NCBI GenBank assembly: GCA_020426955.1
Contig: JAGQOZ010000001.1
Location: forward strand, 1 to 49,910
Length of the DNA stretch: 49,910 nt
DNA from: Planctomycetales bacterium
GTDB lineage: Bacteria > Planctomycetota > Planctomycetia > Pirellulales > Pirellulaceae
Direction: 5' to 3'
The notes below the pieces were generated by a model, which was not told the DNA's origin, searched no databases, and saw only the letters and a list, made by a program, of their open reading frames with translations. Shown here piece by piece: positions 19,910 through 38,142 of this stretch (positions within the stretch are counted from its first letter, which is position 1; every line of letters begins with the position of its first letter). The translations under genes were made by a program, and so were the position numbers.

Positions 19910-21031
19910 ATGGCTGACAAAGATAAAATGTCCATCCAGGACATTCTGGCCGCCTGCCGTGGGGACGGTGGCGGAACACCAGACGCTGCAAAAGCGAACG
20001 ATGAATCATCCGGCGCAGAAGCGGCGAAGCCCGCAGCGACACCGGCAAAACCTGCGGGTCAAGCAAAGCCTGCGGGTCAAATGAGTGTCGAAGATATTCT
20101 GGCGGCGGCACGAGGGGGTTCTTCTGCGGCATCCGGATCTGGTCAAGAGGCCGGTACCAGCAAGCCGGTAGCGTCGAACAAAAGTCCGGGCGAAATGAGC
20201 GTTTCGGATATTTTGGCGGCGGCACGAGGTGACGGCGGTGGTGCTGCGAAGCCAGCTTCTTCATCTGCCAAGAAGGCCGCGCCGAAACCAGCTGCTGCGG
20301 CAGGCGACAAAACAGCGCCTAAAGCCAGCGCGCCGGTTCGAACTGGCCCCATGGATACGTCCAGTATTCTGGCGGCTGCCAGGGGTGGTGCGAAGCCGGG
20401 ACCTATTTCCAAGGCGGAAGCGGCAGCCCAGGGTAAACCGACCGCGCCAAAGTTGACCGCGCCACCGATGCCGCAAAAACCTGCTTACGCGTCCCCGAAA
20501 GCAAAACCTTCTAAGGCCACAGAAACTCGCCGAGGATTCTTTTCGGTTTTCCTCGGTTCGTTCTTAGCTGTTGGCTTCACGACGCTCTCGCTTACCAATC
20601 TCTTGTGGGTATTGGGATTAGCTCGCTTTTTCTTCCCCAATATTTTGATCGAACCGCCCAGTCGGTTCAAAGTTGGGTTTCCCAGCGATTTTCCGCCAGG
20701 TGCTGTGGCAACCAAATTCAAAGCCCAGTTTGGCGTCTGGGTAACCAATGTTGAATGGGACGGACAGCGACAGCTTGTTGCACTCAAGACCGTATGTACG
20801 CATCTAGGCTGCACGCCCAACTGGCTGGAGGCAGAACAAAAATTCAAATGCCCGTGCCACGGAAGTGGTTTTTACATTGACGGAGTCAACTTTGAAGGCC
20901 CGGCACCTCGTCCGTTGGAACGCTATGCCATTCGAGTTGCCGACGATGGGCAGTTGGAGATCGATAAAAGCAAGACGTTCCAGCAGGAGCTAGGACAGTG
21001 GTCCGATACGGCTTGCTACGTACCGGTGTAG
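19910..21031 (+). CDS. Rieske [2Fe-2S] subunit of a cytochrome bc/b6f-type complex, with a ~205-aa N-terminal low-complexity repeat extension
   Basis: Cluster-binding boxes CTHLGCTPNW and CPCHGSGF. Tat motif plus anchor ETRRGFFSVFLGSFLAVGFTTL. The N-terminus has four copies of the MS-x-x-DILAAARG module in an Ala/Pro/Lys-rich context. Confidence 0.9.
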   Translation: MADKDKMSIQDILAACRGDGGGTPDAAKANDESSGAEAAKPAATPAKPAGQAKPAGQMSVEDILAAARGGSSAASGSGQEAGTSKPVASNKSPGEMSVSDILAAARGDGGGAAKPASSSAKKAAPKPAAAAGDKTAPKASAPVRTGPMDTSSILAAARGGAKPGPISKAEAAAQGKPTAPKLTAPPMPQKPAYASPKAKPSKATETRRGFFSVFLGSFLAVGFTTLSLTNLLWVLGLARFFFPNILIEPPSRFKVGFPSDFPPGAVATKFKAQFGVWVTNVEWDGQRQLVALKTVCTHLGCTPNWLEAEQKFKCPCHGSGFYIDGVNFEGPAPRPLERYAIRVADDGQLEIDKSKTFQQELGQWSDTACYVPV

Positions 21032-21087
21032 GTCGACCGTTCGACCGATTCGTTTTTGATCGTTCATAAAGCTACAGAGTTTTTAAG

Positions 21088-21864
21088 ATGGCTTCACTTG
21101 GCGAAGTAATTCGTAATTCGCAGATTTGGAAGAGTATTTTTCGGCACCCAATGCCGGTGGATCGAAGAAATCGAATTGTGGTCATGTTGACCAACTTCTT
21201 CCTTCACCTTCATCCGGTGTCGATCAAAAAGCAGGGAATTGCGCTTAGTTACACTTGGTGCATGGGCGGGGTAACGTTTTTCTTGTTTCTGGTGGAAACG
21301 GTGACTGGCGTGCTGCTGATGTTCTATTATCGTCCAACTTTGGAATGGGCGTACACGGACATTCTGGCGTTACGAGACGTCACGTCGTTGGGCATTCTGC
21401 GCGAAATTCACCGCTGGGGCGCCCATGCAATGGTGATTGCGGTTTGGCTGCACATGTATCGAGTCTTCCTGACGGGCAGTTATAAGCCACCTCGTGAATT
21501 CAATTGGGTCATTGGTGTTGTCCTCCTGCTTTTGACGCTATTGCTCTCGTTTACCGGTTATTTGCTCCCCTGGGACCAACTGGCCATCTGGGCCATCACC
21601 GTCGGTTCCAATATGGCACGAGCAACCCCGTTTCTCGGTTCCGAAGGTCCTGGTGCCGCACTTCTGAATGTGGGCGGTATCGATATGATCACCATGGGAT
21701 CGGACGCTCGCTACGGACTGTTAGCCGCTCGATTTGTGGGCGAAGAAACGCTCAACCGATTCTACATCCTGCATTGCATCGCTATTCCGTTGGTGGTTGC
21801 GTTGCTGCTTGCCATCCATTTTTGGCGAGTGCGTAAGGATGGTGGTATTAGCGGTCCCCTGTAA
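21088..21864 (+). CDS. cytochrome b, N-terminal (b6-like, 4-TM, haem-binding) subunit
   Basis: [60 protein letters not shown] has the conserved His pairs and the PWDQ motif of cytochrome b/b6. Confidence 0.9.
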
Positions 21865-21934
21865 TTGTTTTTTCCGAAACTCATTCACTTGGTCCGACGA
21901 GCGGATTCAGTAGGTTCTCAAAGAAGAGACTCTT

Positions 21935-23281
21935 ATGCACGGAAACGAAGATCAATTTCTCCGAGGAATATCGGGCTTCCTGGGCAGCTACTTTCTTTGT
22001 CTGGCGGCCATGAATGCCATTGCTGCTTTTTATTGCTGGAAGCGATTGGGAAAGTCCAATCTGAGCCTACTTTGGTTGGCATTCTCGGGCGTATTCTTGA
22101 TCATGGCGCCGTTCGGATACGCGGGTGCCAATGGCACGCCTCAGTTGATGAAGTGGATTGGTGTACCGGAAACATTCCGTAACTTCGTCGATTCGCAACT
22201 GGCCAATGCCGTGGCCTATACGTTGGGAACGACCATTACGTTGATCGTGCTGTTTGTCTTTCGTAAGTTCTTTGTCAAACCTGTGATCGCGTGGTTGATG
22301 CTGAACGGAGCCTTGGCGTTCATGGGAATGTCGATGATCGATCCGGAATTCGCATCGATTGTTGGCAAGCCTGACAACGTTCCTATTGTGATGATGGTGT
22401 TCCTACTGGGATTCTTTACTTGGCTGGCAACGTACCGCGCTGTTCAGAACGATGAACGGAAGGAACAAGGCCTGGAATCGCTGGAAGCAGTGGACAACGA
22501 AAAGATTTTGGTGTGGCCTGACTTGGTATACACCGAAATGATTTGCATGGTAGCACTGACTGCCTTCTTGATTCTCTGGGCTATTGGATTGCAGGCCCCA
22601 TTGGAGGAACCGGGCAGTTTGGTCAAGACACCTAACCCATCGAAAGCGCCGTGGTATTTCCTTGGGCTACAGGAGATGTTGGTGTACTTCGATCCGTGGA
22701 TGGCAGGTGTGGTTCTACCGAGCTTAGTTGTTGCTGGGTTGATGGCCATTCCGTTTTTGGATTTCAACAAGGCCGGAAATGGTTATTACACCATTAACGA
22801 ACGAAAGTTCGCGTACCTGATTTTTCAATTTGGCTTTCTCGAATTGTGGGTGACGTTGATCATCCTGGGGACGTTTCTACGTGGCCCCAACTGGAATTTT
22901 TTCGGCCCTTACGAAATCTGGGACGTCCATAAAGTTGAAGCACAAAACAACGTCGACCTGTCTCGCATGTTTTGGGAAGGTTTGCTGCAACGCCAAATGC
23001 CCATGCCATCGACCGAAGCATCGACGCTCTCCCAACTGGGAACGATCCTCGTTCGCGAATCGCCTGGCATTCTTTTGACCATCGCCTATTTTGTGCTGAC
23101 CCCTCCATTATTAGCCATGACGTTACTGAAACGGTTTTATGTCCGAATGGGCTTGATTCGTTTCATGGTGATGTCCAATCTGTTGTTGTTTATGGTCTTG
23201 CTTCCCATCAAGATGGTTTTGCGTTGGACCATTACGCTCAAATACATCATTAGTATCCCTGAATATTTCCTGAATCTTTAG
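21935..23281 (+). CDS. cytochrome b C-terminal / b6f subunit-IV-like protein, expanded to ~10 TM helices
   Basis: PNPSKAPWYFLGLQEMLVYF matches the PEWYF-type Qo-site motif of subunit IV and the cytochrome b C-terminus. It is flanked by about 5 extra N-terminal and 2-3 extra C-terminal hydrophobic helices. Confidence 0.8.
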   Translation: MHGNEDQFLRGISGFLGSYFLCLAAMNAIAAFYCWKRLGKSNLSLLWLAFSGVFLIMAPFGYAGANGTPQLMKWIGVPETFRNFVDSQLANAVAYTLGTTITLIVLFVFRKFFVKPVIAWLMLNGALAFMGMSMIDPEFASIVGKPDNVPIVMMVFLLGFFTWLATYRAVQNDERKEQGLESLEAVDNEKILVWPDLVYTEMICMVALTAFLILWAIGLQAPLEEPGSLVKTPNPSKAPWYFLGLQEMLVYFDPWMAGVVLPSLVVAGLMAIPFLDFNKAGNGYYTINERKFAYLIFQFGFLELWVTLIILGTFLRGPNWNFFGPYEIWDVHKVEAQNNVDLSRMFWEGLLQRQMPMPSTEASTLSQLGTILVRESPGILLTIAYFVLTPPLLAMTLLKRFYVRMGLIRFMVMSNLLLFMVLLPIKMVLRWTITLKYIISIPEYFLNL

Positions 23282-23334: not shown

Positions 23335-26300
23335 ATGCCAGCTAGTGAAAAAACTTGGCGAGATCAACGTACATTGCACGTTGTGTTCGGTTGCACGGGT
23401 GTCGTGCTCTTGATTGCGACGATTTGGATGTTCGCAAAGGATCATTCTCGTGAATGGAAAACCTACCAACGTTTGAATCGAGAAATCGAGACTCGTTTGA
23501 CGTCGTGGCGACTGGAGGCTGACGAATCCGACGACAAACGGTTGCAGTTGTCTGAACTAGACGACAAGCTTCAACTAGCCCTGGCGACGCCGCCTGCGCA
23601 GCCTCTGTTCTCTGAGTTCGTTGCGGCCTTAGACGAATCAGACGCAGACCTGAAATCCGCATTGGAGAGTCAATACCAAGAACTTAAGGCGGCCAGCGGT
23701 GCCGATTCCGCCGAAGGCAAGCCCAGCGAACAAGCATTGAAATTGCGCAAGGATTTGTTCAATGAAATGGATCGCGTAGTCAGCAATGCTAAGTTTCGCG
23801 AGGCTCGGGCGCTTGGCCTGCGAAAATTCAAATCCGCTGATTACGATGAGCAACGCGCCAACTATGATTTGGGCGTTCGCGACGCCGTGATGGACGCCGA
23901 ACTGAACCAACTGATGGAAAAGGCATTCCAGGAACGCAATGACCGTGACGAATTGACGTTGGAGTACCAGGACGCCACCGCCTATCGCGTGAAACTGCAG
24001 GGCTTGTTGCGTTCGATGCAGGATGATGAATCGGCCGTTCGAAAGCAGATTGACGATGTCCAATTAGAATACAACCGACTGAAAACATCGCTGGAAGAAC
24101 GTGACGCGACGTACTTCACTAGCACCTTCCCTTTCTTGGGAAAACGAGTTTTAGAATTGCCGATTTTCGACGCATTCAATTCGCCATTGAAGGTCCAAAA
24201 CTTATGGACGGATGGCCTGACTCAGCCAATGGGAAGTTTTCGTCAGGTACGGCGATTTGATCGCTGTACTACTTGTCATCAGAACGTGGAAAAAACAGCA
24301 CCTGGTTCCGCTGTCAAGCCCGCCTACGAACATCAGCATATTACACGCTTGACGTTGAAAACCCCGCAGTCCGCGCCTGCGGGTGATGCAACTCTGGTCG
24401 ACGTCTACGGCCTTCAATTCGCTGCTCGCGGCTTGGTCGAATTCGATGACGTAACCGTTAAGAACGTACTGCCAGAATCACTGGCAGCGACGGCTCGAGC
24501 ACAATCGGCTGATCAATCGAATGGCATCCAGGTTGGAGATATCATTGTTCGCATTTCTGGGAACGAGATCTTCTCGGAAGAACAGGCCACGCGATTGCTT
24601 TTGACGGATTTTGAACCCGGGCAACCGTTGACAGTTGAGGTGCTGCGAGGCTTGCCGCATCCTTTTGCCAGCCATCCTCGGTTGGACCTTTTCGTCGGTT
24701 CGCTTAGCCCTCATAAGCTGTCTGTTTTTGGCTGCACTGTCTGCCACGAAGGACAAGGCTCGGCTACCGACTTCAAATGGGTTTCGCATTCACCCAGCAA
24801 TCCTCGTCAAGAAGAACAATGGATCGATAAATACGGTTGGTTTAACAACCATCACTGGATCTACCCCATGTTTCCGGCTCGTTTTGCGGAAAGCGCTTGT
24901 TTGAAGTGTCACCACAGCGTGGTTGAATTGCGTCCCAGTGAACGATTCCCCGAAGCGCCGGCACCCAAGCTAATGGCAGGCTATGACCTCATTACGTCGT
25001 ACGGTTGCTTCGGCTGCCATGAAATCAATGGCTACAATGGTCCCGCGTCCATTGGCCCCGACATGCGACTGGAGCCCAATTATTTTGCTGCGGCTGCGGC
25101 GGTAAAAACGGATCCTGCTTTCGCCGCTTTGGATCAGGAAAAACAGGATTGGATCCAAACGCTGGTTCAACACCCTGAACAGACTTCGGTCCGACGTAAG
25201 CTTCGTGAATTCATCAAGACGGATGCAGCTTCGGACACACCGTTGTTGACGACCACCTCTCACAAGATGGCGTCCGTTCTGGATGACGTCGAGTCGCCTG
25301 GGACGATGCGAAAGGTCGGGCCTAGCCTGCGTCACATTGGGGCTAAAAATGGCAAGACGTTTTTATACGACTGGATTCGCGACCCATCGCATTTCCGTCC
25401 ATCGACCAAAATGCCTCGTTTTTTCGGCCACTGGGATCACTTGAACGAAGAAGAACGCGCTGTTTCAGAACGTTTCGAACCGATCGAAATTCTAGGGACC
25501 GTTCAGTTCCTGTTAACAATGAGTCAATCGTATGAAGCGGAAACACCGTCGGTCGAAATCAGCGACGATCCCGAGATGATTGAACGAGGGAAGCTGGCGT
25601 TTGAGACGCGAGGTTGCTTGGCGTGCCATCAGCACGACGACTTTCCGTATGCTCAGGCCACCAAAGCACCAGACCTTACGGGCATCGGCAACAAGTTTGC
25701 CATGGATGACAATCCAGACGCAAAGTTGTGGCTGTACAATTGGCTCAAAAATCCGTCTAACTATCACCCTAGAACCAGCATGCCCGACCTGATCTTGGAA
25801 CCTATCCAGGATACTGACGGAAACACGACCGATCCCGCAGCCGATATCGCGGCATATCTGCTTTCATCCACCACGGATTGGCAAGTTGCAGAAGCGACCG
25901 AAAAGGGGCTCAATGTTGACGAAGCGGCACTGAATGACTTGGTCTTAGAGCATCTTAAGTCCAAGATTTTCATTCGCGACGCTGAACAAGCAATCAGCAA
26001 TGGACGCATTCCAGATGAAGTGGCCGCAACGCTTTCTGGTGCGGAGCTGCAGTTGGTCGGTGACCAATTGGATACTCAGAAGAAGCTGATGTATATCGGC
26101 GAGAAGACTATTGGAAAATTCGGTTGCTATGCTTGCCATGACATTCCCGGCTTTGAAGATGCAAAACCGATTGGTGCGGCGCTCGCAGATTGGGGCCGCA
26201 AGGAACCGTCCAAAATTGCGTTCGAACATATTGTGGAATACCTCCATGAAGGACAGCATGGGCACGGTGCTCATGTGTCCGATGGCGAAGCAGATCACGA

Positions 26301-27840
26301 CGAAGAACATTCTGCGGAAGAACATTCCGATGCTGGCAACGTTCCCCCGGACGGCGAGTTTGACGAATCGTACTACGTTCAAAAACTTCAAGAGCACGAT
26401 CGAACTGGTTTTGTTTGGCAGAAACTTAAGGAGCCTCGTAGTTACGACTATCAAAAGGCCGAATTGAAAGATTCCTACAACGACCGTTTGCGAATGCCAC
26501 AGTTCCCGTTCGATCCAGAAGAACGAGAAGCGGTTGTGACGTTTGTATTGGGTTTGGTTGCCGATCCGCCAGCTCATCAATTCGTCTATCATCCCAATGA
26601 ACGGCAAGCGGCGATGATCGCGGGTAGCAAGGCCATTGAAAAATACAACTGTAAAGGTTGCCATCTCTTCGAATCTGAAAAGTGGGAATTGCAGTTTGAA
26701 AAAGGTGCTATTCCGCCTCAGTCCCCAGACTTGGCAACCATGTTTCCTTTCATGCAAGTTTCCGTGCCAAGTGCCGAGTTAAACGCGTCAGCAGAAGCCG
26801 ATTCGTTCACCAATTTGGTAACGGCTCATATCAAGGGCATGCCTAGATTAAACAACGATGGTAACTTTGCCGTGTTTGATTATGACGGCACGCCTTTATC
26901 GGAGCTGGATGAAGAGGATATTGCCGAAACCAATCCCGACGATTATTTATATCCGTTCGATATTTGGGAACCGAGTTTGATCGATGGAAGTGTCTTCCAG
27001 CCTGGCCTGTCACCACTAGAAATTCCGGCCCAGCAAATTGTCAATAAACGATCTTCCGTGGGAGGTGATTTGACGCATTGGCTGCGGCCTCGTGCGTTAG
27101 AGATTGAGCGAGAAAGGAATTCAGGTGCAGAAGCCGCTCAGGTCTGGGGTTGGCTGCCGCCGCCGCTGATCGGCGAAGGTAATAAGGTGCAAGCAGCTTG
27201 GTTGCACGACTTCCTGCTGGAGCCCTATGCCATTCGCCCCGGTGTGTTTATGCGAATGCCCAAATTCAACATGTCGTCCGACGAAGCAACCGCCATTGTC
27301 CACTACTTTGCAGCTCGAGATAACGCGAATTATCCTTACGAATTCGAGGAAGCGACCGATACGAATCGGTTGAATCGCTTGAACCAGGAATATGTTTCTG
27401 CCTCGGGTGAATCCGAAAACGCTGACAAATCGTCGAACGTTCGCTTCGAACACGCGATGAATATTGTCGTTGACAAGAACTACTGTGTAACTTGCCATTA
27501 CGTCGGGGATTTCGATCCGAAACGAGGTGACCGGTCGACTGGACCAAACCTTGCAGACGTCGAGAAGCGGCTTCGTCCCGATTACGTAAAACGTTGGGTT
27601 GCCAACCCGGCTCAGATATTGCCTTACACTCCAATGCCGGTGAATATTAAGTTTGACACCAACGCCGAAAACCTGGGCGGAGTAAGCCAAGATCTCTATC
27701 ATGGTACTAGCCTGGAGCAGTTGGATGCATTGGTCGATTTGCTGATGAATTTTAGTCAATACACGCAATCCAAGACTTCGATTTCGGATATGGTTCCGTC
27801 TACAGAAGCGAGCGAGAATCCGGACGGAGAATCCGAGTAA
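23335..27840 (+). CDS. membrane-anchored octahaem c-type cytochrome (1501 aa) with coiled-coil and PDZ-like regions
   Basis: GGAGG RBS. N-terminal TM VVFGCTGVVLLIATIWMF. Eight CxxCH motifs: CTTCH, CTVCH, CLKCH, CFGCH, CLACH, CYACH, CKGCH and CVTCH. PDZ-like stretch GIQVGDIIVRISGNEIFSEEQATRLLL...LTVEVLRG. Confidence 0.9.
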   Translation: MPASEKTWRDQRTLHVVFGCTGVVLLIATIWMFAKDHSREWKTYQRLNREIETRLTSWRLEADESDDKRLQLSELDDKLQLALATPPAQPLFSEFVAALDESDADLKSALESQYQELKAASGADSAEGKPSEQALKLRKDLFNEMDRVVSNAKFREARALGLRKFKSADYDEQRANYDLGVRDAVMDAELNQLMEKAFQERNDRDELTLEYQDATAYRVKLQGLLRSMQDDESAVRKQIDDVQLEYNRLKTSLEERDATYFTSTFPFLGKRVLELPIFDAFNSPLKVQNLWTDGLTQPMGSFRQVRRFDRCTTCHQNVEKTAPGSAVKPAYEHQHITRLTLKTPQSAPAGDATLVDVYGLQFAARGLVEFDDVTVKNVLPESLAATARAQSADQSNGIQVGDIIVRISGNEIFSEEQATRLLLTDFEPGQPLTVEVLRGLPHPFASHPRLDLFVGSLSPHKLSVFGCTVCHEGQGSATDFKWVSHSPSNPRQEEQWIDKYGWFNNHHWIYPMFPARFAESACLKCHHSVVELRPSERFPEAPAPKLMAGYDLITSYGCFGCHEINGYNGPASIGPDMRLEPNYFAAAAAVKTDPAFAALDQEKQDWIQTLVQHPEQTSVRRKLREFIKTDAASDTPLLTTTSHKMASVLDDVESPGTMRKVGPSLRHIGAKNGKTFLYDWIRDPSHFRPSTKMPRFFGHWDHLNEEERAVSERFEPIEILGTVQFLLTMSQSYEAETPSVEISDDPEMIERGKLAFETRGCLACHQHDDFPYAQATKAPDLTGIGNKFAMDDNPDAKLWLYNWLKNPSNYHPRTSMPDLILEPIQDTDGNTTDPAADIAAYLLSSTTDWQVAEATEKGLNVDEAALNDLVLEHLKSKIFIRDAEQAISNGRIPDEVAATLSGAELQLVGDQLDTQKKLMYIGEKTIGKFGCYACHDIPGFEDAKPIGAALADWGRKEPSKIAFEHIVEYLHEGQHGHGAHVSDGEADHDEEHSAEEHSDAGNVPPDGEFDESYYVQKLQEHDRTGFVWQKLKEPRSYDYQKAELKDSYNDRLRMPQFPFDPEEREAVVTFVLGLVADPPAHQFVYHPNERQAAMIAGSKAIEKYNCKGCHLFESEKWELQFEKGAIPPQSPDLATMFPFMQVSVPSAELNASAEADSFTNLVTAHIKGMPRLNNDGNFAVFDYDGTPLSELDEEDIAETNPDDYLYPFDIWEPSLIDGSVFQPGLSPLEIPAQQIVNKRSSVGGDLTHWLRPRALEIERERNSGAEAAQVWGWLPPPLIGEGNKVQAAWLHDFLLEPYAIRPGVFMRMPKFNMSSDEATAIVHYFAARDNANYPYEFEEATDTNRLNRLNQEYVSASGESENADKSSNVRFEHAMNIVVDKNYCVTCHYVGDFDPKRGDRSTGPNLADVEKRLRPDYVKRWVANPAQILPYTPMPVNIKFDTNAENLGGVSQDLYHGTSLEQLDALVDLLMNFSQYTQSKTSISDMVPSTEASENPDGESE

Positions 27841-27932
27841 CGTTACAATTACTAGTCCAGCCAAGACGCTGGGAATTTGATCACGGCGAAAGCACCGACG
27901 GACCCGTTGTTTTTGCCAGAGAGGAGAATTCG

Positions 27933-28703
27933 ATGCAAAAGATTTTATTAACAGTTACCTTGAGCCTAATGCTTGTAAGCGGTGCTTCTGCCCAAAAATG
28001 GGGCACAATCAAGGGTCGCTTTGTTCTTGACGGAGATGCGCCATCGGCATCCAAAATCACCGTTACCAAAGATGTGGCAGTCTGTGGCGCCAATCCATTG
28101 TTTGAAGAGACTTTGGTTGTCAATGAAGAAAACAAAGGCATTCGAGACATCATGGTGTACTTGAATTTGGGACGGAATGACAAACTGAAGGCGCATCCGG
28201 ATTACGAAGAAGCCGTCAAGAAACCGGTTGTCATGGACAATGTAGGGTGCCGATTTGAACCGCACGTTGTGATTCTTCAAGTGGGCCAGACGCTCGAAAT
28301 TGGCAACAAGGACCCGATTGCTCATAATGCCAAGGTCGACACATCTTCTAACCCTCCGATCAATCCAATTATTCAGGCCAATTCAAAGGTCGAGCAGGTT
28401 TACAAGAAGGCGGAACGTCGTCCAGCAAACGTTAGTTGTTCGATCCACCCGTGGATGACGGGGCGAGTGATGATTCTGGAACATCCCTATTCCGCAGTGA
28501 GTGACGCTGACGGCAACTTCGAAATCAAGAACCTGCCCGTCGGAAAATGGGAGTTCCAGTTCTACCACGAAACGGGATATGTCGAAGAAGCCAACATGGA
28601 CGGCAAAAAGGTCAGCATGAAACGCGGACGTTTAGAGCTGGAAGTGAAGGAAGGCGAAACCGATCTCGGCGAGCTTCTTGTGAAACCGGCGGAATTGAAG
28701 TAA
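27933..28703 (+). CDS. exported MauL-like cupredoxin (putative type-1 copper) protein with a C-terminal carboxypeptidase-regulatory-like beta-sandwich
   Basis: Signal peptide MQKILLTVTLSLMLVSGASAQ. Candidate Cu ligands are His in NKDPIAHNAKV and C-x2-H-x2-M in VSCSIHPWMTG. The tail DGNFEIKNLPVGKWEFQFYHE fits the pattern I recall for 'methylamine utilisation protein'/MauL-type cupredoxins. Confidence 0.6.
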   Translation: MQKILLTVTLSLMLVSGASAQKWGTIKGRFVLDGDAPSASKITVTKDVAVCGANPLFEETLVVNEENKGIRDIMVYLNLGRNDKLKAHPDYEEAVKKPVVMDNVGCRFEPHVVILQVGQTLEIGNKDPIAHNAKVDTSSNPPINPIIQANSKVEQVYKKAERRPANVSCSIHPWMTGRVMILEHPYSAVSDADGNFEIKNLPVGKWEFQFYHETGYVEEANMDGKKVSMKRGRLELEVKEGETDLGELLVKPAELK

Positions 28704-28734
28704 GCATTGATCCGTGAAACCAGGAGCCCGTTTG

Positions 28735-29619
28735 ATGTTGAAGCGATTTTGGATGATATGCACCTTGCTGCCACTTGCGTTCTTTGCAGGTTGCAGTGGA
28801 TCGCCAGAAGCCGACTTTGTCCAAGTGAATTCGGCTGCCGTAGAAGAGCTTCGTACGAAGCTGGCATCCAGCGGCTCCGGTACGGAAACTGACCAACAAG
28901 AAGAAGCTGGCCCATCCGGCTATGCAACGCTTAAGGGCCGATTTGCACTGGACGGTTCGCCACCGCCTCAAATCAAATTGGATATTTCCAAAGATCCGGC
29001 GATTTGCGCACCGGGTGGCAAGGATGTATTTGCCAACGACGTCGCCGTGGGCCCCAATGGAGGTTTGGCGAACATCGTCATTTTTGCCAATGGTGTCAAT
29101 GAAGATTGGGTGCATGATTCAGCGAAGCCGGGACGCACGGATGAAGTCATTTTTGACCAAAAAGAATGTGTCTTTTTGACCCACGTCGTTGGCATTCAAA
29201 CTGGACAGCCGATGACGGTTCTGAACAGCGATCCGGTTGCTCACAACTTGAAGGTTTCCACAACATTCAATCAAACCATTCCGGAAGGCAAGAGTGTTCC
29301 GTTTGTGGCTTCAAAAGAGCTGAATTCGCCGGAAAAAATGTCGTGTAGTATTCACCCTTGGATGACGGCGTATTTATTAGTTCGCAACGATGGATACTTT
29401 GCCGTTACGGCAGAGGACGGATCGTTTGAAATACCGAATCTGCCGGCAGGAGTCGAACTAGAATTTCGAGTTTGGCACGAACGGTTAAACGGTATCAAAG
29501 GTGATCTTCAAGTGAACGGTTCTGCAGAGACGTGGAAGAAGGGCCGCTTCGAAATGACCCTAGAGCCATCGCAGGACCAAGAGCTGAATGTTGTGCTACC
29601 TGCAGCCATGTTTAACTAG
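28735..29619 (+). CDS. MauL-like cupredoxin lipoprotein, paralogue of the preceding gene
   Basis: ATG 28735 follows GGAG. Lipobox LLPLAFFAGC. Same blocks as the neighbour: NSDPVAHNLKV, MSCSIHPWMTA and DGSFEIPNLPAGVELEFRVWHE. Confidence 0.6.
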   Translation: MLKRFWMICTLLPLAFFAGCSGSPEADFVQVNSAAVEELRTKLASSGSGTETDQQEEAGPSGYATLKGRFALDGSPPPQIKLDISKDPAICAPGGKDVFANDVAVGPNGGLANIVIFANGVNEDWVHDSAKPGRTDEVIFDQKECVFLTHVVGIQTGQPMTVLNSDPVAHNLKVSTTFNQTIPEGKSVPFVASKELNSPEKMSCSIHPWMTAYLLVRNDGYFAVTAEDGSFEIPNLPAGVELEFRVWHERLNGIKGDLQVNGSAETWKKGRFEMTLEPSQDQELNVVLPAAMFN

Positions 29620-29638
29620 TTTAGGCGAATCAAATCCA

Positions 29639-30874
29639 ATGAAACGATTACGTATTTTTTGGGCACTCCTCTCTATGCCTATGATTGGCTTGGTGACTGG
29701 TTGCGGTACCGAATCACCCGACTTTCGCGTGAACAATGTTTACATGGAGAAGATCTCGCGAGAGCTAGATGTTAAGTTCGCCGGTCAACGACAGGAAGAT
29801 GTCTATACGGCCTTGACCGCTATGTTCGGCACGCCGGATTTGCCTGTGGTAACGGGTGGCGAAGATGCGGGTGTTTCCGATGTGTTGAGCGTCGAGAACC
29901 TGCACTTGGCGGCGGGGCCAGTAATCAAGGATTACGAGGCCGGTAAGGGATTGTACCGACAGCATTGTGCGCATTGCCACGGTGTTACCGGTGACGGTTA
30001 CGGCCCTACAGCTAAGTTCCTCAATCCGTATCCTCGTGATTTCCGCATGGGGACCTTCAAATTCAAGTCGACACCCGTAGGTTATCGGCCGACAGACGAC
30101 GATCTGACTCGGATTGTTCGCAACGGAATCAACGGGACGGCCATGCCATCGTTTAAGGAAATGTTGGATTCCGGTCAAATTGATGCAATCGTGGATTACG
30201 TCAAATATTTGGCTCTACGAGGTCAGACGGAACGCAGCCTGATCAGTCTAAGTGGCGATTACGGCTACGAAACGCCGGAGGAAACCACCGAAACGCAAGC
30301 TGAGCTGCTCAGTAAGGAAGTATTGGTGGACGAAATCCTGGGGGCGATTGTCGAAGAGTGGACGTCGGCAAGTGAGACGGCCACCGAAGCAGAAGGACGT
30401 GATCCGGTTTATGATTTCTCCAGCCCCGAATTCGATCAGAGCGAATTAGACGAATCGATTGCTCGTGGTCAACAACTTTACTATGGCGCTGGAGCTTGCG
30501 TGACATGTCACGGCCCAACGCAGTTGGGTGATGGGCAGACGACGGACTACGATAATTGGACGAAGGATTTCTTTGGCGAGGCCGCCAAGGTAGCAGACGC
30601 GGAATTGTTGGATGCCTATCTAACTGCTGGCGGTTTGCCACCTCGTAACATCATTCCTCGCAATTTGCGTCAGGGCGTTTATCGCGGTGGTCGTCGCCCG
30701 ATTGATATTTATTGGCGAGTGAAAAATGGAATTGACGGGACTCCGATGCCCGCCGCATCGAGTCAGCTGACCGACGATGACGTCTGGGACATTGTGAATT
30801 TTGTGCTGTCAGTTCCGTACCAGTCGCTGAGTCAACCAGCGGACATGCCTGAATTCGTACGCGACCGCAATTAA
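29639..30874 (+). CDS. dihaem c-type cytochrome lipoprotein
   Basis: ATG 29639. MKRLRIFWALLSMPMIGLVTGC is a lipoprotein signal. Two class-I-like cytochrome c modules have CAHCHG ... GTAMPSF and CVTCHG ... GTPMPAA (CxxCH plus a distal Met). Confidence 0.85.
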   Translation: MKRLRIFWALLSMPMIGLVTGCGTESPDFRVNNVYMEKISRELDVKFAGQRQEDVYTALTAMFGTPDLPVVTGGEDAGVSDVLSVENLHLAAGPVIKDYEAGKGLYRQHCAHCHGVTGDGYGPTAKFLNPYPRDFRMGTFKFKSTPVGYRPTDDDLTRIVRNGINGTAMPSFKEMLDSGQIDAIVDYVKYLALRGQTERSLISLSGDYGYETPEETTETQAELLSKEVLVDEILGAIVEEWTSASETATEAEGRDPVYDFSSPEFDQSELDESIARGQQLYYGAGACVTCHGPTQLGDGQTTDYDNWTKDFFGEAAKVADAELLDAYLTAGGLPPRNIIPRNLRQGVYRGGRRPIDIYWRVKNGIDGTPMPAASSQLTDDDVWDIVNFVLSVPYQSLSQPADMPEFVRDRN

Positions 30875-30922: not shown

Positions 30923-31768
30923 ATGGGACGATTTTGGAGTCTACTTTTTCTGGCAGTTCCAGTGTTGGGAGTCGGTGTATTTGCCGCGGCCATGATGACC
31001 GATTCTTGGCCATTGCATAACCATTGGCTGCCTCGCGACGTTTCCGAAAAAGGTTATGTCATTGACAATCTGTTCAATACGATTTTGTATTTGACGGGTG
31101 TTATTTTTGTTGGTACCAGTTTGGCCTTGTTCTGGTTCCTTTGGAAGTACGATGGCGAAAAGAATTTGGGGCCTGTTCGGTTCTTACATGGTAGCCACAC
31201 TCTGGAAGTGGTTTGGTCTATTATTCCAGCTGCCACATTACTTTTTATTGCCATCTACCAGATGAATGCTTGGGCAGATGCAAAGATCGATCGACCGGGC
31301 ACTCGATTGGCCGGTGCGGACGGCCGTATGAATACAGAAGACGATCTGGTCGAATTCCAATTGCCAATTGCGCAGGTCACGGGTCGACAATTTGAGTGGC
31401 GTATTCGCTACGCTGGTCGAGACGGTGTGGTCGGCACATCGGACGACGTGCATACCGTCAATGATCTGCATCTGCCGGTAGACGAAGAAGTCGTTTTGCA
31501 GATTAAGAGCGATGACGTCTTGCACAGTTTTTTCCTGCCGAATTGCCGATTAAAGCAAGACGTAGTTCCAGGGATGAAGCAGATGGTTTGGTTCAAACCA
31601 AAGGAAGTCGGTTCGTTTGATATTGTCTGTGCCGAACTATGTGGTTGGGGTCATTACAAGATGAAGGGGCGTATGACTATTCAGTCTCGCAAAGACTTTG
31701 ATCAATGGCTAACAGATCAAGAGCGTATCCAACAAGAATCATCTTTCGCCCTAAGCGAAGAGGAATAA
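30923..31768 (+). CDS. ctaC: cytochrome c oxidase subunit II (CuA; no fused cytochrome c domain)
   Basis: GAGGA RBS. Two N-terminal TMs. CuA site HSFFLP ... CAELCGWGHYKM. Confidence 0.9.
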   Translation: MGRFWSLLFLAVPVLGVGVFAAAMMTDSWPLHNHWLPRDVSEKGYVIDNLFNTILYLTGVIFVGTSLALFWFLWKYDGEKNLGPVRFLHGSHTLEVVWSIIPAATLLFIAIYQMNAWADAKIDRPGTRLAGADGRMNTEDDLVEFQLPIAQVTGRQFEWRIRYAGRDGVVGTSDDVHTVNDLHLPVDEEVVLQIKSDDVLHSFFLPNCRLKQDVVPGMKQMVWFKPKEVGSFDIVCAELCGWGHYKMKGRMTIQSRKDFDQWLTDQERIQQESSFALSEEE

Positions 31769-31771
31769 ACA

Positions 31772-33565
31772 ATGAGCAGCATAACGGCCGGTTCGCACGC
31801 ACATGAACATGAGTCCTCGGCGACTCATGCCTCGTTCATTTCGACCTACGTATTTTCGCGTGACCACAAAATCATTGGACTGCAGTTTTTGTTTTCTACA
31901 TTGCTCTGGTTCTTTGTTGGCGGACTGTTGGCGTTGGGGATTCGGTGGCAACTTGCCTATCCGTGGACGAACATGCCGATTATCGGCAAGATGTTATTTC
32001 CAGGCGAAGGAGGCCAGATTTCTCCCGAATTCTACACAACGCTATTCACCATGCACGCAACGGTGATGATCTTTTTTGTGATCATTCCGATCCTTGCGGG
32101 AGCGTTTGGGAATTACCTGATTCCCCTGATGATCGGTGCGGATGACATGGCTTTTCCCACGCTGAACATGCTTAGTTATTGGTTTATGTGGCCCGCGTTT
32201 TTCTTGATTGGTGCAAGTTTCTTCACTGCCCCTTATGGAGCAGGCGGAGGCTGGACGTCGTACCCGCCGCTTTCGGTTGTCAATGAAGCGGCGCCGGGAA
32301 GTGCAAGTGCGCAGACGCTGTGGTTGCTTGGCATTACGTTTGTGGGGATTTCGTCGATGATGGGTTCCGTCAACTACATGACGACCATCATCCAGATGCG
32401 AGCTCCTGGTATGACGATGTTTCGATTACCACTGACTATTTGGGGCATGTTTATTACGGCGATCTTGCAAGCGTTTGCCTTGCCTGTTCTGACTGCGGCT
32501 GGCTTTATGCAGGTCATGGACCGCTTGTTGGGGACGGGATTCTTTTTGCCAGAGGGCCTTATCGTAAACAATTCGATTCCGGCCAGTGGCGGCGGGCAGC
32601 CTTTGTTGTGGCAGCATCTGTTCTGGTTTTATTCGCACCCAGCGGTCTACATTATGATCCTTCCCGCGATGGGAATGGTTTCGGACATTATCAGCTGTTT
32701 TGCTCGGAAGCCGATTTTTGGTTACAAGCCGATGGTCTACTCGATTTCCGGAATTGCCGGGCTTGGCTTTATCGTTTGGGGACACCACATGTTCGTTTCG
32801 GGGATGAATCCCGTGCTGGGCATGACCTTTATGGTTTCCACAATGATGATTGCTCTTCCTAGTGCGGTGAAAGTGTTTAACTGGCTAGGAACGATTTGGG
32901 GTGGCAAGATCGAGTTTACAACTCCAATGTTGTTTTCGTTGTCATTCGTGTCGATGTTCATTATTGGTGGCTTGTCTGGAATCTTCATGGCGGCCACTCC
33001 TGTGGATATCTTCATTCACGATACCTACTTCATTGTTGCGCACTTCCACTACGTTCTCTTTGGCGGTACGGCGATGGCAGTATTTGGCGCCATCTATTTT
33101 TGGTATCCCAAGATGTTTGGCCGTATGATGAACGAGCAGTTGGGTAAGGTGCACTTCTTCCTCACATTCATCTTCCTGAACGGAACGTTTTTCACGATGC
33201 ATGTATTGGGAGCCGTAGGATTTCCTCGCCGACTTGCAGATCCCTATCACTATGATACGTTTCAGCACCTGATGCCAATGAATCGGTTTATGACTTGGTG
33301 TGCGATAGGCATGGTGGCAACCCAAGTTATCTTTGCGTTTAACTTCATCAGCAGTCTGTTCTTCGGAAAGCCCGTGGGCCGTAATCCTTGGGGATGCAAC
33401 AGTTTGGAATGGAGTGCTCCAAGTCCTCCGGGACATGGAAACTTTGACTTCCAGCCTGTTGTTTATCGAGGCCCCTATGAATATGGTCATCCCGATGCAA
33501 CGAAGAACCACTATCCGCAAATTGAACCGCCTCCTGAAAACCCGACCGAAGTGCCCGAGCACTAA
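31772..33565 (+). CDS. ctaD: cytochrome c oxidase subunit I (haem-copper oxidase, A-type)
   Basis: WFYSHPAVYIMILPAMG, WGHHMFVSG and VAHFHYVLFGG are canonical haem a/a3-CuB ligand regions. It starts 3 nt after ctaC. Confidence 0.95.
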   Translation: MSSITAGSHAHEHESSATHASFISTYVFSRDHKIIGLQFLFSTLLWFFVGGLLALGIRWQLAYPWTNMPIIGKMLFPGEGGQISPEFYTTLFTMHATVMIFFVIIPILAGAFGNYLIPLMIGADDMAFPTLNMLSYWFMWPAFFLIGASFFTAPYGAGGGWTSYPPLSVVNEAAPGSASAQTLWLLGITFVGISSMMGSVNYMTTIIQMRAPGMTMFRLPLTIWGMFITAILQAFALPVLTAAGFMQVMDRLLGTGFFLPEGLIVNNSIPASGGGQPLLWQHLFWFYSHPAVYIMILPAMGMVSDIISCFARKPIFGYKPMVYSISGIAGLGFIVWGHHMFVSGMNPVLGMTFMVSTMMIALPSAVKVFNWLGTIWGGKIEFTTPMLFSLSFVSMFIIGGLSGIFMAATPVDIFIHDTYFIVAHFHYVLFGGTAMAVFGAIYFWYPKMFGRMMNEQLGKVHFFLTFIFLNGTFFTMHVLGAVGFPRRLADPYHYDTFQHLMPMNRFMTWCAIGMVATQVIFAFNFISSLFFGKPVGRNPWGCNSLEWSAPSPPGHGNFDFQPVVYRGPYEYGHPDATKNHYPQIEPPPENPTEVPEH

Positions 33566-33574
33566 AGCCCATAG

Positions 33575-34591
33575 ATGTCCAACCGTAGAACGAGTAACGC
33601 TGTAGCCTCCGTATGGACTCGCCGTCTGGCGATCGGCTTGGCCTGCGCTACGTTTCCTTTGATTTGGGTGGGGGGGATGGTAACTACCTATGACGCGGGA
33701 ATGGCGGTACCAGACTGGCCGTCTACGTATGGTTACAATTTATTCTTGTATCCTTGGTCCACTTGGTGGAGTGGTCCATTCGACTTATTTATTGAGCACG
33801 GGCATCGTCTATTGGGAGCAGCCGTGGGCATGATTGCGATTGCTGCTGCGATTTCCGCATTCGTGAATCATGATTCCCGTCTGATTAAAACGTGTGCCAT
33901 CGGCTGTTTGATTGCAGTGATCGCACAGGGTGGACTGGGCGGGCTTCGAGTTGTTTTGAACGACACCACGGTGGCTCGGTTGCACAGTTGTACGGGACAG
34001 CTGTTTTTCTGCGGAACGGTGGGCCTGGTGGCCGTAACTTCGAATTGGTGGACTGCCAATCCTTCACGTGAAGAATTGGTGTCCAGAAGTCCGCTGACCG
34101 GCCTTTTCGGTCTAACGATGTGCATGATGTATCTACAATTTGTGCTTGGTTCGTTCGTTCGTCACATTGACCACTCGACAACTCCCGGCCAGTTTCAGCT
34201 CATCGCGTACGCTCACGTTTTGTTGGCGATGGCAATTGTCCTTCGCGTGACCTGGGTCTTTCTCTGTGGAATGAAGTCCACACAAGCTTGGGCGAAATAT
34301 GCTTCTTCCGCTTTACTGGCGTTGACGTTAGTACAAATCGGACTGGGTCTTGCTACCTGGACCGTTAACTACGGCTGGCCCACGTTCTTGCCGGAATACG
34401 CTGGATTCGCAGGATTTCTGGTGCGAGCCCAGAGTTTGGCAAAAGGTATAGTCGTAACCGGTCATGTTGCCACGGGGTCACTTTTGGTGGCAACCAGTTT
34501 CTGGAGCTGGCTACGTTCATACCATTGTGTCGCAGACGAAACGTCTGCCATCAGCGTGTCAATCAAACGATCAACGGGGGCAGTAGCTTGA
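33575..34591 (+). CDS. ctaA: haem A synthase (COX15/CtaA family)
   Basis: MAVPDWPSTYGYNLFLYPW, IEHGHRLLG and later His-containing helices (HVLLAM, TGHVATG). About 8 TM segments. Confidence 0.85.
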   Translation: MSNRRTSNAVASVWTRRLAIGLACATFPLIWVGGMVTTYDAGMAVPDWPSTYGYNLFLYPWSTWWSGPFDLFIEHGHRLLGAAVGMIAIAAAISAFVNHDSRLIKTCAIGCLIAVIAQGGLGGLRVVLNDTTVARLHSCTGQLFFCGTVGLVAVTSNWWTANPSREELVSRSPLTGLFGLTMCMMYLQFVLGSFVRHIDHSTTPGQFQLIAYAHVLLAMAIVLRVTWVFLCGMKSTQAWAKYASSALLALTLVQIGLGLATWTVNYGWPTFLPEYAGFAGFLVRAQSLAKGIVVTGHVATGSLLVATSFWSWLRSYHCVADETSAISVSIKRSTGAVA

Positions 34592-34602
34592 GCACTTCGT
34601 TG

Positions 34603-35505
34603 ATGTCTGTTGACCAGGAAGCCACCGTCACGAGCTCGCGGATGGCAGACTATGTGGAGCTGACCAAGCCTAAGATTTTAGTGCTGGTGTTAGTGACCGT
34701 TAGTCTCGCCACAGTCATCGGTGCTGGTTCGAACCTGGTGCTCTGGACTTGGCTGCATGCGTTGATTGGAACGACATTGGTCGCGTCGAGTGCCAGTATG
34801 CTAAACCAATTGTTCGAAGTCAGTACTGACGCTCGAATGCCACGTACCAGCAAGCGTCCACTGCCGATGGGGCGTTTGATGCGATGGGAAGTGCTTGGTT
34901 TAGCAACACTGACGGTTTGCATTGGTATGCCGTATTTGTGGTTTAATGTTGGCTTGGCCGCTGCGTTTTGGGCGTTTGCCACCTGGAGCCTGTACGCGTT
35001 TGTCTACACTCCGGCAAAGACCAGAACGTCCTGGAACACGGCCATTGGTGCCATTCCAGGAGCGTTGCCTGTACTGATCGGCTGGTCTGCGGCGGGACGA
35101 ACACTGGATTTCACCGGGGCAATGGTCTTTGCCATCATGTTTTGCTGGCAGTTTCCTCATTTCATGGCCATCGCATGGCTATACCGACAACATTACCAAG
35201 CGGCCGATGTGAAAATGTTGACCGTTACCGATCCGACAGGAAAGTCTGCAGGACGCCTGGCAATCGGAATGGCGGTAGCAACATTACTGGCGGCGGTCGC
35301 TGCGGGCGGCACAATTACCAGTTCCATCGGACTATTCGGATACGTCGCGGTGTCAATGGCATTAGGCGTATACCAGCTTTACCTGTCCATTCAATTTTCG
35401 AAGAATCTAAACGAAGGTGCGGCTCGTTCGCTGCTTCGATTTTCACTTGTGTATTTGCCACTGCAACTTGCCAGTTTGACTTTGGCCAGTGTGATAGTGA
35501 TCTAG
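34603..35505 (+). CDS. ctaB: protohaem IX farnesyltransferase (haem O synthase)
   Basis: YVELTKPKILVLVLVT, the UbiA-type motifs NQLFEVSTDARMPRTSKRPLP, and FCWQFPHFMAIAWLYRQHY. ATG 34603 lies 11 nt after the ctaA stop. Confidence 0.9.
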   Translation: MSVDQEATVTSSRMADYVELTKPKILVLVLVTVSLATVIGAGSNLVLWTWLHALIGTTLVASSASMLNQLFEVSTDARMPRTSKRPLPMGRLMRWEVLGLATLTVCIGMPYLWFNVGLAAAFWAFATWSLYAFVYTPAKTRTSWNTAIGAIPGALPVLIGWSAAGRTLDFTGAMVFAIMFCWQFPHFMAIAWLYRQHYQAADVKMLTVTDPTGKSAGRLAIGMAVATLLAAVAAGGTITSSIGLFGYVAVSMALGVYQLYLSIQFSKNLNEGAARSLLRFSLVYLPLQLASLTLASVIVI

Positions 35506-35526
35506 TCAAAGGAATTGAAAACCAAA

Positions 35527-36717
35527 ATGTCTCACGATACCGACCAACACGATCATGGGCATGTGCATTTGGAATATCAGCCTGCATTGCCGCTACCCAA
35601 CGGCAAGCTCTGCCTTTGGTTATTTCTTTCCACGGAAATCATGTTTTTTGCCGGACTAATCGGAACGTATATCGTCTTGCGTTTTGGTGCTCCTGCTTGG
35701 CCCGCTCCGGCTGACGTGCATTTGAGCGAACCGATTGGTGCGTTCAACACGTTTGTGCTGATTTGCTCCAGCGTTTCCATTGTCCTTTGCCTGGAAGCCG
35801 CCAAAGCGAACAAAACGGGACAAGCCAAACTAATGCTGTGGATCACGTTTGCTTTGGGAAGTTTGTTCCTGGGAGTAAAAGCGTATGAGTACAGCGCCAA
35901 GTTTGCTCATGGCATCTATCCGAAGCGGCCTCGTAGTTTGCTTTATGAAAAAGCGGATGTCACCTATGCGGCTGCGGTCCGTAAAACATTAATGGACCGA
36001 CGGATTGCGTTGGAGAACGAAAAGTCACATCTCCAGGAGAACGAACAGGACATTCCTGCGCATTTGGACGAAGAGATTAGCCAAGCTTCCATGTTGGAAT
36101 CGGGGCTTGCCACTTGGACCGAACGCAGAGTAGCGCAAGCCGATTCACCTGCCATGCAACAGCAGTTATTGGACGGCCTTGCCAATTCCATCTACGCGGG
36201 TCATGGCGGCGGTCCCAGTTCGGAAGTGATTGATCAGGAACTTGCGGAGTTGGCGACGCAAGAATCTGAAGTCGAACAACAGTTGCGGGATCTGTCAAAG
36301 GAGCAGTTGGAGCTGGAAGAGAAGACAGCAGCGGGTGAAGATCATTCCGAGCGATTGGCCGAGATTACTTCGCTCAGCACTTCGTTGCCCAATGACAAGG
36401 CGCTGATTGCGGATCGGGTTGGGACTTTGGAGTTACTCAAGAATGCCGAGCACGGACTGAACGAGTATTTTCATGAAGAGGGAAGTTCGCTCATTCTTCC
36501 GATGCGAATTCCGGGTGGAAACATGTGGGCCAGTACCTACTTTTTGTTGACTGGTTTCCACGCAATCCACGTGATTGTCGGGTTGATTCTGTTTGGTTTG
36601 ATCTTGGGAAAAACACTGGATAAGTCGAAGGCCAACTTTATCGAAAACACGGGCCTTTACTGGCACTTTGTGGACCTCGTCTGGATTTTCCTGTTTCCGT
36701 TGTTGTACTTGTTCTAA
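35527..36717 (+). CDS. ctaE: cytochrome c oxidase subunit III with a ~200-aa soluble insertion
   Basis: [28 protein letters not shown] and then, after the insertion, [23 protein letters not shown] and [20 protein letters not shown] are subunit III hallmarks. His-rich N-terminus [14 protein letters not shown]. Confidence 0.85.
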
Positions 36718-37182: not shown

Positions 37183-37202
37183 TTCGCGAGTTTACTGATC
37201 CA

Positions 37203-38123: not shown

Positions 38124-38142
38124 CAAAAGACGCGGAACTGTC

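Follow-up and report, generated by a model that had tools for sequence, protein, structure and literature searches.

What do two adjacent genes for exported, cupredoxin-like proteins do when they lie between a bc-type complex and an aa3-type oxidase? This question is raised by a stretch of Planctomycetales DNA of 49,910 nucleotides (nt) (contig JAGQOZ010000001.1, positions 1 to 49,910), referred to here in its full length as the window. For this analysis we named the two genes cupA and cupB, and their products CupA and CupB (together, Cup). A previous sequence-only reading had described them as tandem MauL-like cupredoxins and had suggested that they act as blue-copper electron shuttles or as a membrane-tethered wire leading to CuA. 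Our results favour, with a probability of about 0.6, the view that both proteins carry electrons by means of a type-1 copper site and act as partners of c-type cytochromes on the path from the bc complex to the aa3 oxidase. The coordinates of all features are collected in Table 1.

CupA and CupB contain a cupredoxin core with a candidate type-1 copper site

We observed that CupA and CupB each consist of three structural parts in AlphaFold2 models built on homologue alignments (predicted local distance difference test, pLDDT, of 93.0 for CupA and 88.7 for CupB). When both models were compared with the PDB using Foldseek, amicyanin, plastocyanin, the Nitrosopumilus protein 5fc9 and CuA domains were matched with a probability of 1.00, as was the extra cupredoxin region of Thermus NirK (6hbe). 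The template modelling (TM) scores normalised to the target were 0.67-0.70 for amicyanin, plastocyanin and 5fc9. CupA superposed on amicyanin with a TM score of ~0.69 relative to the target and a root-mean-square deviation of ~2.0 Å over 87-88 columns, and the top matches of CupB were amicyanin. These matches cover the central ~90 residues only, and none of the PDB structures matches the full length of either protein. CupA also matched the cupredoxin-fold copper chaperone CupA of Streptococcus pneumoniae (4f2e), and a search of a viral structure library returned generic blue-copper matches only.

A PDB sequence search with CupA gave marginal matches only, to 5fc9, which is a type-1 copper protein, and to amicyanin. 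In the HMMER alignment from this search, His131, Cys169, His172 and Met175 of CupA pair with His53, Cys92, His95 and Met98 of amicyanin, and the spacing of the C-x2-H-x2-M loop is identical. The H...C-x2-H-x2-M set previously put forward as plausible type-1 ligands therefore matches the copper ligands of amicyanin residue for residue, and it does so in both Cup proteins. Only the ~2 Å superposition on amicyanin implies that the four candidate residues come together at a single site. A curated profile scan reported no Pfam cupredoxin family for CupA, CupB or the isolated core, and NCBIfam contained no above-threshold family for either protein (amicyanin, TIGR02657, reached 13 bits against a cut-off of 110, with E 0.1).

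Outside the copper site, Cys51 and Cys106 of CupA probably form a structural disulfide that joins the N-terminal segment to the cupredoxin core. The two residues are not part of a CxxC motif, and in the divergent relatives that we inspected both were mostly kept or lost together, the exception being domain 2 of protein P0479. The region that follows the core has seven strands in the CupA model. The sequence-only reading had proposed a search with CarboxypepD_reg profiles; PF13715 and PF13620 do match the C-terminal sandwich of CupA, from profile position 19-20 onwards, but in both CupA and CupB the match is below the Pfam threshold. When residues 22-46 of CupA were spliced to residues 177-256, PF13620 scored 25.3 bits instead of 20.3, and its coverage reached back to profile position 11. 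The N-terminal strand (residues 23-32) thus probably supplies the first strand of the sandwich, with the cupredoxin nested inside it, although the modest gain obtained by splicing is suggestive and not proof.

One paralogue carries export signals of a soluble protein and the other those of a lipoprotein

CupA and CupB are 36% identical over 227 residues (BLASTP, E 1e-42), which is far beyond chance. All of the collinear blocks described earlier were found, including KGRF(V/A)LDG, DP(I/V)AHN, CSIHPWM and DG(N/S)FEI.NLP.G...(Y/W)HE, and the blocks that hold the Cys pair read KDVAVCG/NVGCRFEPHV in CupA and KDPAICA/QKECVFLTHV in CupB.

The signal peptide of CupA ends at ASA-QK (…SGASA-QKWG), and residues 2-13 form a helix of low pLDDT in the model. 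The N-terminus of CupB is a hydrophobic stretch, ...LLPLAFFAG-C, that on reading the sequence ends in a bacterial lipobox (general pattern [LVI][ASTVI][GAS]C). For the start of cupB we consider ATG 28735 more likely than GTG 28714, because the closest orthologue (P0241, 294 residues) is annotated from it. The tether that follows the lipidated Cys has a pLDDT of 54-82 and a single short helix at residues 40-52, and the corresponding linkers of the orthologues are variable and low in complexity. The earlier proposal that one copy is soluble and the other lipid-anchored agrees with these signals, and the split is kept across Pirellulales.

The ligands and the pair itself are conserved

The domain survey included 143 Cup domain copies from the window and 80 genome loci, the latter being the best 80 of 549 relatives found in a scan of one genome per species and belonging nearly all to Planctomycetota. 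In CupA numbering, Cys51, Cys106, Cys169 and His172 were present in all 143 copies, and His131 and Met175 in 141. The two exceptions are paralogues located outside the respiratory cluster, with Asn and Glu in place of His131 and Met175. The four ligands were also invariant in an alignment of 28 sequences (A1; CupA, CupB and 26 homologues), and Gly26, Cys27, the Cys pair and the four ligands were all invariant in 30 CupB orthologues.

The exceptional copies (L055:10001-10780 and L078:9989-10768) carry the loop CSIHSWE and lie near genes for multihaem c or cytochrome b561. This variant possibly represents another type of metal site.

Two deep clades, A-like and B-like, were resolved both by a neighbour-joining tree and by reciprocal BLAST. 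Members of the A-like clade come first after the octahaem c gene (at least 50 loci) and have a signal peptide without a lipobox. B-like members come last before the dihaem c gene in 52 of 55 copies and are lipoproteins with a tether of 40-60 residues. A strict pattern detected the B-like lipobox in 50 of the 55 copies, four more were recognised by eye as (L/A/V)PGC or GGC, and none was visible in the L007 copy. This two-clade split with a fixed order indicates that the pair is not a recent tandem duplication; by sequence, each protein represents an old clade of orthologues that extends across Pirellulales, and the pair is a stable feature of the operon.

The family is large. A database clustered at 90% identity held more than 1183 homologues of CupA and more than 1486 of CupB, whose named source organisms were nearly always Pirellulales or other planctomycetes and whose annotations were 'hypothetical protein', sometimes 'plastocyanin' and rarely 'methylamine utilization protein'. 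A profile search of 1.84 billion representatives at 50% identity recovered 15,827 proteins with E <= 0.001, 2,560 of them with E <= 1e-30.

The cup genes are embedded between two cytochrome c genes

In the window, the octahaem cytochrome c gene is directly upstream of cupA, and the dihaem cytochrome c gene and then coxII are downstream of cupB, as the sequence-only reading had it. Its spacing of 92 nt was also reproduced, from the stop of the upstream cytochrome gene (27840) to the ATG of cupA. The gap between cupA and cupB is 10 nt, and ~19 nt separate the cupB stop from ATG 29639, the probable start of the dihaem c gene on sequence grounds. A promoter and terminator scan of positions 27700-29800 gave counts no higher than in shuffled sequence. 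Given these short gaps and the absence of promoter- or terminator-like sites above the shuffled level, the genes are read as one operon. Upstream of the octahaem c gene, the Rieske gene starts at 19910 and the two cytochrome b parts at 21088 and 21935; downstream, CoxII has the CuA motif CAELCGWGHYKM. In this setting the octahaem c is the probable electron donor to the Cup proteins, and the dihaem c their probable electron acceptor or partner.

We scored the synteny of related loci using the proteins of the window as probes, and 47 loci could be evaluated on both flanks. The complete arrangement (octahaem c, two cup genes, dihaem c, cox) was found in 30 of them, and two more had the same order with three cup copies. 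Three loci had a single cup gene between octahaem c and dihaem c with cox not nearby, and three had one cup gene and dihaem c only. An isolated cup paralogue was present in nine of the 47.

Considering each neighbour separately, the dihaem c gene was directly downstream of the cup gene or genes in 59 of 70 evaluable loci, the octahaem c gene was directly upstream in 53 of 69, and coxI was within 5 kb in 37 of 54. Because the linkage is tighter to the two cytochromes than to coxI, the Cup family looks, from gene order, tied to its cytochrome c partners rather than directly to CuA. The respiratory position originally proposed is therefore conserved, but its tightest link is to dihaem c and octahaem c, and the link to coxI is weaker.

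Cup domains are fused to cytochromes and occur beside other oxidases

In four metagenome-assembled genomes (L028, L034, L048 and L050), the open reading frame (ORF) of the octahaem c extends beyond the cytochrome: a Pro/Ala-rich linker leads to an entire Cup domain whose ligands are all kept. Complete copies of the fused ORF have 1808-1863 residues and 8 CxxCH motifs, whereas that of L028 is truncated by the start of its contig. The fused ORF is followed by cupA and cupB as genes of their own, so that the fused Cup is a third copy. In the representative library, P0368 is the same octahaem c-Cup fusion and P0372 is a fusion of Cup to a membrane-anchored monohaem c. Since Cup domains are fused to c-type cytochromes, the electron-shuttle idea receives independent support; at the level of sequence, nothing points more strongly to a direct interplay of Cup domains with such cytochromes.

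Other members are located near a second type of oxidase. Lipoprotein Cup paralogues of the A-like clade lie next to cbb3 oxidase operons, in divergent orientation, in L086:5124-10924, L091:3135-8945 and L062:769-6208. These operons begin with a CcoP-like dihaem c, followed by an unknown protein of ~205 residues, CcoN, CcoO and a P-type ATPase. The dihaem c of the window is 29-39% identical to the CcoP-like dihaem c of the cbb3 loci near full length, and 41-52% over short partial matches. Rhizobial homologues (24-30% identity, with the ligands and the Cys pair kept) are oriented divergently to a SCO gene and lie near a cbb3-type oxidase.

Two further groups of observations concern the wider family. 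In two distant phyla, a Cup homologue lies beside genes for globin or truncated haemoglobin and for enzymes of cyclic di-GMP (c-di-GMP) with GGDEF, HD-GYP or EAL domains. One case is the planctomycete locus L084:8178-14550, which also has two hemerythrin genes; the other is the truncated-haemoglobin/EAL operon of a Caballeronia plasmid (L082:5563-9866). Additional fusions (P0462, P0361, P0363, P0468 and P0479) include a Ser/Thr kinase joined to TPR repeats, a Cu,Zn-SOD-like domain and Cup; the same protein set includes tandem Cup domains in which the ligands are partly lost, and a BlaR1/M56-like protein that combines ankyrin repeats with two Cup domains devoid of ligands.

Proposed role and alternatives

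According to the proposal that CupA and CupB, as periplasmic proteins of an uncharacterised family, carry electrons between the bc complex and the aa3 oxidase, electrons would pass from menaquinol to the Rieske centre, then to the octahaem c, to the Cup copper centre or centres, to the dihaem c lipoprotein and finally to the CuA centre of the oxidase. CupA would act as the freely moving carrier, and CupB would be held at the membrane surface by its lipid anchor and ~40-residue tether, as membrane-tethered cytochromes c are elsewhere. Paralogy, fold, ligand conservation, targeting signals, synteny and cytochrome fusions are observed here, whereas we infer copper binding, the redox potentials, the way and sequence in which electrons move, and the status of the proteins as subunits or shuttles.

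A bolder version, which we regard as possible and hold only tentatively, is that a planctomycete bc-aa3 supercomplex contains CupA, CupB and, in some genomes, the fused third copy as fixed subunits that form a haem-copper wire, and that Cup is a general partner module for c4/CcoP-like dihaem cytochromes of both aa3 and cbb3 oxidases. Along the wire, eight haems would be followed by one or two type-1 coppers, two further haems and CuA. If this were true, a diffusible carrier would be unnecessary, and the ~16,000 sequence clusters of the family would constitute a new and widespread class of respiratory copper subunits.

Several observations weigh against assigning Cup to the bc-to-aa3 path. The octahaem c and the dihaem c could by themselves link the bc complex to CuA, which would leave Cup as a possible side branch. 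The nine loci with a paralogue outside any respiratory cluster show that the family is not exclusively respiratory, and some of these out-of-cluster paralogues adjoin genes for hemerythrin, globin, c-di-GMP or universal stress proteins. The adjacency to Sco in rhizobia and the copper P-type ATPase of the cbb3 operons also fit copper handling, and some distant relatives without ligands are located in sensor proteins (BlaR1-like or kinase). The family is thus broader than respiration, and cupA and cupB belong to its respiratory core.

The best-surviving alternative, which we nevertheless consider unlikely, is that the Cup proteins are side-branch carriers connecting the octahaem or dihaem c with other periplasmic redox enzymes (dehydrogenases, nitrite or NO reductases, other oxidases), while the main bc-to-aa3 path runs from haem to haem. 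Ten haems c are already available between the Rieske centre and CuA, paralogues are found with cbb3 operons and in unrelated neighbourhoods, the copy number varies from one to three, and L031, L042, L047, L056 and L071 have a single cup gene without coxI/II. On the other hand, the slot between two cytochromes c is strongly conserved and the two-clade pair is old and stable; a carrier that served distant enzymes would hardly be expected in tethered or fused form, and a candidate partner enzyme is not encoded nearby in the window.

The possibility that these proteins handle copper, delivering or buffering it for the assembly of CuA/CuB, or that they stabilise the oxidase as proposed for AcoP, seems more doubtful still. 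It would account for the divergent pairing of rhizobial homologues with a SCO gene, for the planctomycete paralogues that flank cbb3 operons with a P-type ATPase, for the Foldseek match to the pneumococcal chaperone and for the association with both A-type and C-type haem-copper oxidases. However, by its ligand set and loop the site is of the buried type-1 redox kind and not of the Cys/Met Cu(I) chaperone kind, a Sco protein is already encoded downstream in the window, and cytochromes c are linked more tightly than coxI. That Cup is joined to an octahaem or monohaem cytochrome c likewise suits electron transfer and not metallation.

We judge it improbable that Cup proteins are sensing or regulatory modules, redox- or O2-linked, that report the periplasmic redox state. 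The out-of-cluster paralogues found with hemerythrin, globin, GGDEF/HD-GYP and Usp genes, the Caballeronia homologue in its truncated-haemoglobin/EAL operon, and the relatives fused to Ser/Thr kinases or BlaR1-like sensors could be explained in this way, but such contexts belong to other paralogues, several of them with degenerate ligands, whereas cupA and cupB are in a tight operon of structural respiratory genes (gaps of 10-92 nt) with no regulator nearby.

The MauL label

The sequence-only reading had called both proteins MauL-like, and this label was not supported. A genuine MauL was obtained for reference by locating amicyanin on plasmids and then reading the unannotated ORF between mauG and mauM. 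The product of the reference gene, from Methylobacterium, is a cupredoxin that, like CupA, is exported and has VGDT..., IAHN and C-x-IHP motifs (DIAHN and CWIHPIIRM in this protein). Unlike Cup, it is a single domain of 114 residues with a C-x2-H-x4-M loop, without the N-terminal segment, the Cys pair or the beta-sandwich. The similarity between CupA and this MauL is marginal (BLASTP E 0.002 over 66 residues; hhalign E 0.025, probability 1.9%) and no better than the similarity between CupA and amicyanin. MauL is needed for an active methylamine dehydrogenase, and we found no methylamine dehydrogenase or mau genes among the window ORFs scanned or in the 80 related loci. A MauL identity of CupA and CupB was therefore rejected on architecture, gene context and weak similarity. 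That they serve, as MauL proper does, in the maturation of a quinoprotein amine dehydrogenase is close to refuted by these same differences, even though NCBI names a few family members 'methylamine utilization protein' and IAHN and C-x-IHP also occur in genuine MauL.

The proteobacterial proteins that NCBI calls 'methylamine utilization protein', 'plastocyanin' or 'carboxypeptidase regulatory-like domain protein' (e.g., Caballeronia WP_244850623 and S. meliloti pSymA WKL33421) resemble Cup in their cupredoxin plus CarboxypepD_reg architecture and in retaining His/Cys/His/Met at 24-30% identity (tblastn E 7e-19 to 5e-4). PF13620 is above threshold in these proteins and below it in CupA and CupB. 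The rhizobial forms keep the Cys pair, whereas the Caballeronia form is without the N-terminal elaboration. Unlike the Cup proteins of the window, none of these uncharacterised members lies in a bc-octahaem c-aa3 operon or occurs as a soluble and lipoprotein pair, and they are outside mau clusters. When the 'methylamine utilization protein' of Caballeronia was used to query a protein database, all matches were close relatives from Burkholderiaceae, and genuine MauL was not among them. This name points to an unrelated pathway and should not be taken as a function.

Other features of the window

Several neighbouring genes have unusual features. The Rieske gene (19910-21031) encodes an N-terminal extension of ~200 residues with four copies of MS(I/V)xDILAA(A/C)RG (window positions 19928-20390), which precedes an RRGFF Tat-like signal and a membrane helix and is unusual for a Rieske subunit. 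The C-terminal subunit of cytochrome b (21935-23281) has 448 residues and is far longer than subunit IV of b6f. CoxIII (35515-36717) has 400 residues with a hydrophilic insertion of ~200, and Pfam COX3 matches it in two separate stretches. After coxIII (36828-39692) follow genes for an ABC ATPase, an ABC-2 permease and a SCO1/SenC copper chaperone; the ORF of the last (38469-39692) overlaps that of the permease, so its true start is probably later than 38469. Farther downstream, the minus strand encodes a large trypsin-like protease that is secreted and has PPC and dockerin domains (40737-43454), and the plus strand a PQQ_2 beta-propeller protein (47640-49886); a gene similar to the latter also follows the second cup gene in L077.

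Table 1. Coordinates of the cup genes, their parts, the flanking respiratory genes and the reference loci (window positions unless a locus is named)
Feature	Position	Strand	Basis or remark
cupA, exported soluble cupredoxin and beta-sandwich protein, 256 residues	27933..28703	+	ORF
cupA type-I signal peptide MQKILLTVTLSLMLVSGASA, cut before QKWG	27933..27992	+	read from sequence
cupA invariant Cys pair: Cys51 (28083-28085), Cys106 (28248-28250)	28083..28250	+	
cupA cupredoxin core (~residues 96-182)	28218..28478	+	HMMER and Foldseek vs amicyanin
cupA candidate type-1 Cu ligands	His131 (28323-28325), Cys169 (28437-28439), His172 (28446-28448), Met175 (28455-28457)	+	alignment
cupA C-terminal prealbumin/CarboxypepD_reg-like beta-sandwich, residues 183-250	28479..28682	+	Pfam sub-threshold and model
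cupB, lipoprotein paralogue, 301 residues from GTG 28714	28714..29619	+	ORF
cupB signal peptide and lipobox LAFFAG-C, lipidated Cys27 (28792-28794)	28714..28794	+	read from sequence
cupB tether, ~40 residues, from lipid anchor to folded domain	28795..28917	+	model and orthologue alignment
cupB Cys pair and candidate Cu ligands	29005..29364	+	alignment of 30 B-like proteins
cupB Cys pair	Cys98 (29005-29007), Cys152 (29167-29169)	+	invariant in 30 B-like proteins
cupB candidate Cu ligands	His177 (29242-29244), Cys211 (29344-29346), His214 (29353-29355), Met217 (29362-29364)	+	
Rieske protein, N-terminal part of cytochrome b, extended C-terminal subunit of cytochrome b	19910..23281	+	Pfam; synteny kept
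Membrane-anchored octahaem cytochrome c, 1501 residues, exactly 8 CxxCH	23335..27840	+	Pfam and motif count
Dihaem cytochrome c lipoprotein, 2 CxxCH, lipobox LVTGC	29588..30874	+	PF13442 and PF00034, two stretches each
coxII (CuA, without haem c domain), coxI, ctaA, ctaB, coxIII	30923..36717	+	Pfam; CuA motif
Octahaem c-Cup fusions	L028:118-2451, L034:4263-9725, L048:4304-9895, L050:4476-9902		same fusion in protein P0368
Reference mauL, Methylobacterium sp. DM1 plasmid pLVM1, 114 residues	L088:11402-11746		without entry in plasmid gene table

Comparison with known systems

Our literature searches found no paper on Cup proteins, on planctomycete bc/aa3 supercomplexes with copper proteins, or on a copper carrier in a planctomycete bc-aa3 operon. 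To our knowledge, blue copper carriers from a bc-type complex to an oxidase are known in archaea, cyanobacteria and acidophiles, but not in Planctomycetota, whose respiratory chain has barely been studied.

Amicyanin of Paracoccus (PDB 1aaj, 2gb2 and 1sfd) resembles the Cup core in fold (TM score of 0.67-0.69 normalised to amicyanin), in ligand set and in its C-x2-H-P-x-M loop. It differs in being a single domain of 105 residues that serves methylamine dehydrogenase, with an identity of 12-20%. Beyond amicyanin, Cup has the N-terminal segment with the Cys pair, the prealbumin-like sandwich and the location in a bc-aa3 operon.

In function, there are parallels in archaea, where sulfocyanin, as part of the SoxM supercomplex, and halocyanin deliver electrons to oxidases (PMC3062577). 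The electron-carrier function of sulfocyanin (SoxE, Sulfolobus) and halocyanin (Natronomonas) is the one proposed here for Cup, a comparison made by function and not by sequence. Unlike Cup, these are archaeal, single-domain, membrane-anchored proteins that replace cytochromes c rather than sit between multihaem ones.

The copper ligands of AcoP are His/Cys/His/Met, and the gene for this protein is flanked by cyc1 and coxB within the rus operon. This cupredoxin of the iron-oxidising chain of Acidithiobacillus ferrooxidans forms a complex with the dihaem cytochrome c4 and is reduced by it (PMC5982212). In contrast with Cup, it is a single-domain protein with a green copper site from an acidophile, present in one copy and of debated role, and the gene order differs in that the cup genes precede the dihaem c gene. 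Two blue copper carriers that differ in their anchoring are also met in auracyanins A and B with alternative complex III, and a carrier kept at the membrane by a lipid or helix anchor and a flexible tether is met in the tethered cytochromes c (c_y, c552). Auracyanins serve alternative complex III and reaction centres, however, and c_y is a haem protein, so that folds or partners differ from those of Cup.

Electron carriers of the blue copper type that act between complexes III and IV are thus already a known kind of protein. The analysis corrects a misleading database name, in a large family (15,827 clusters at 50% identity) that is almost wholly 'hypothetical' or misnamed 'methylamine utilization protein', and the pair, the fusions and the repeated pairing with dihaem c provide a testable hypothesis for how electrons cross from an octahaem bc complex to an oxidase. 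What is new, relative to the systems compared here, is the nested architecture, the soluble and lipoprotein pair, the octahaem c fusion and the pairing with dihaem c beside two oxidase types.

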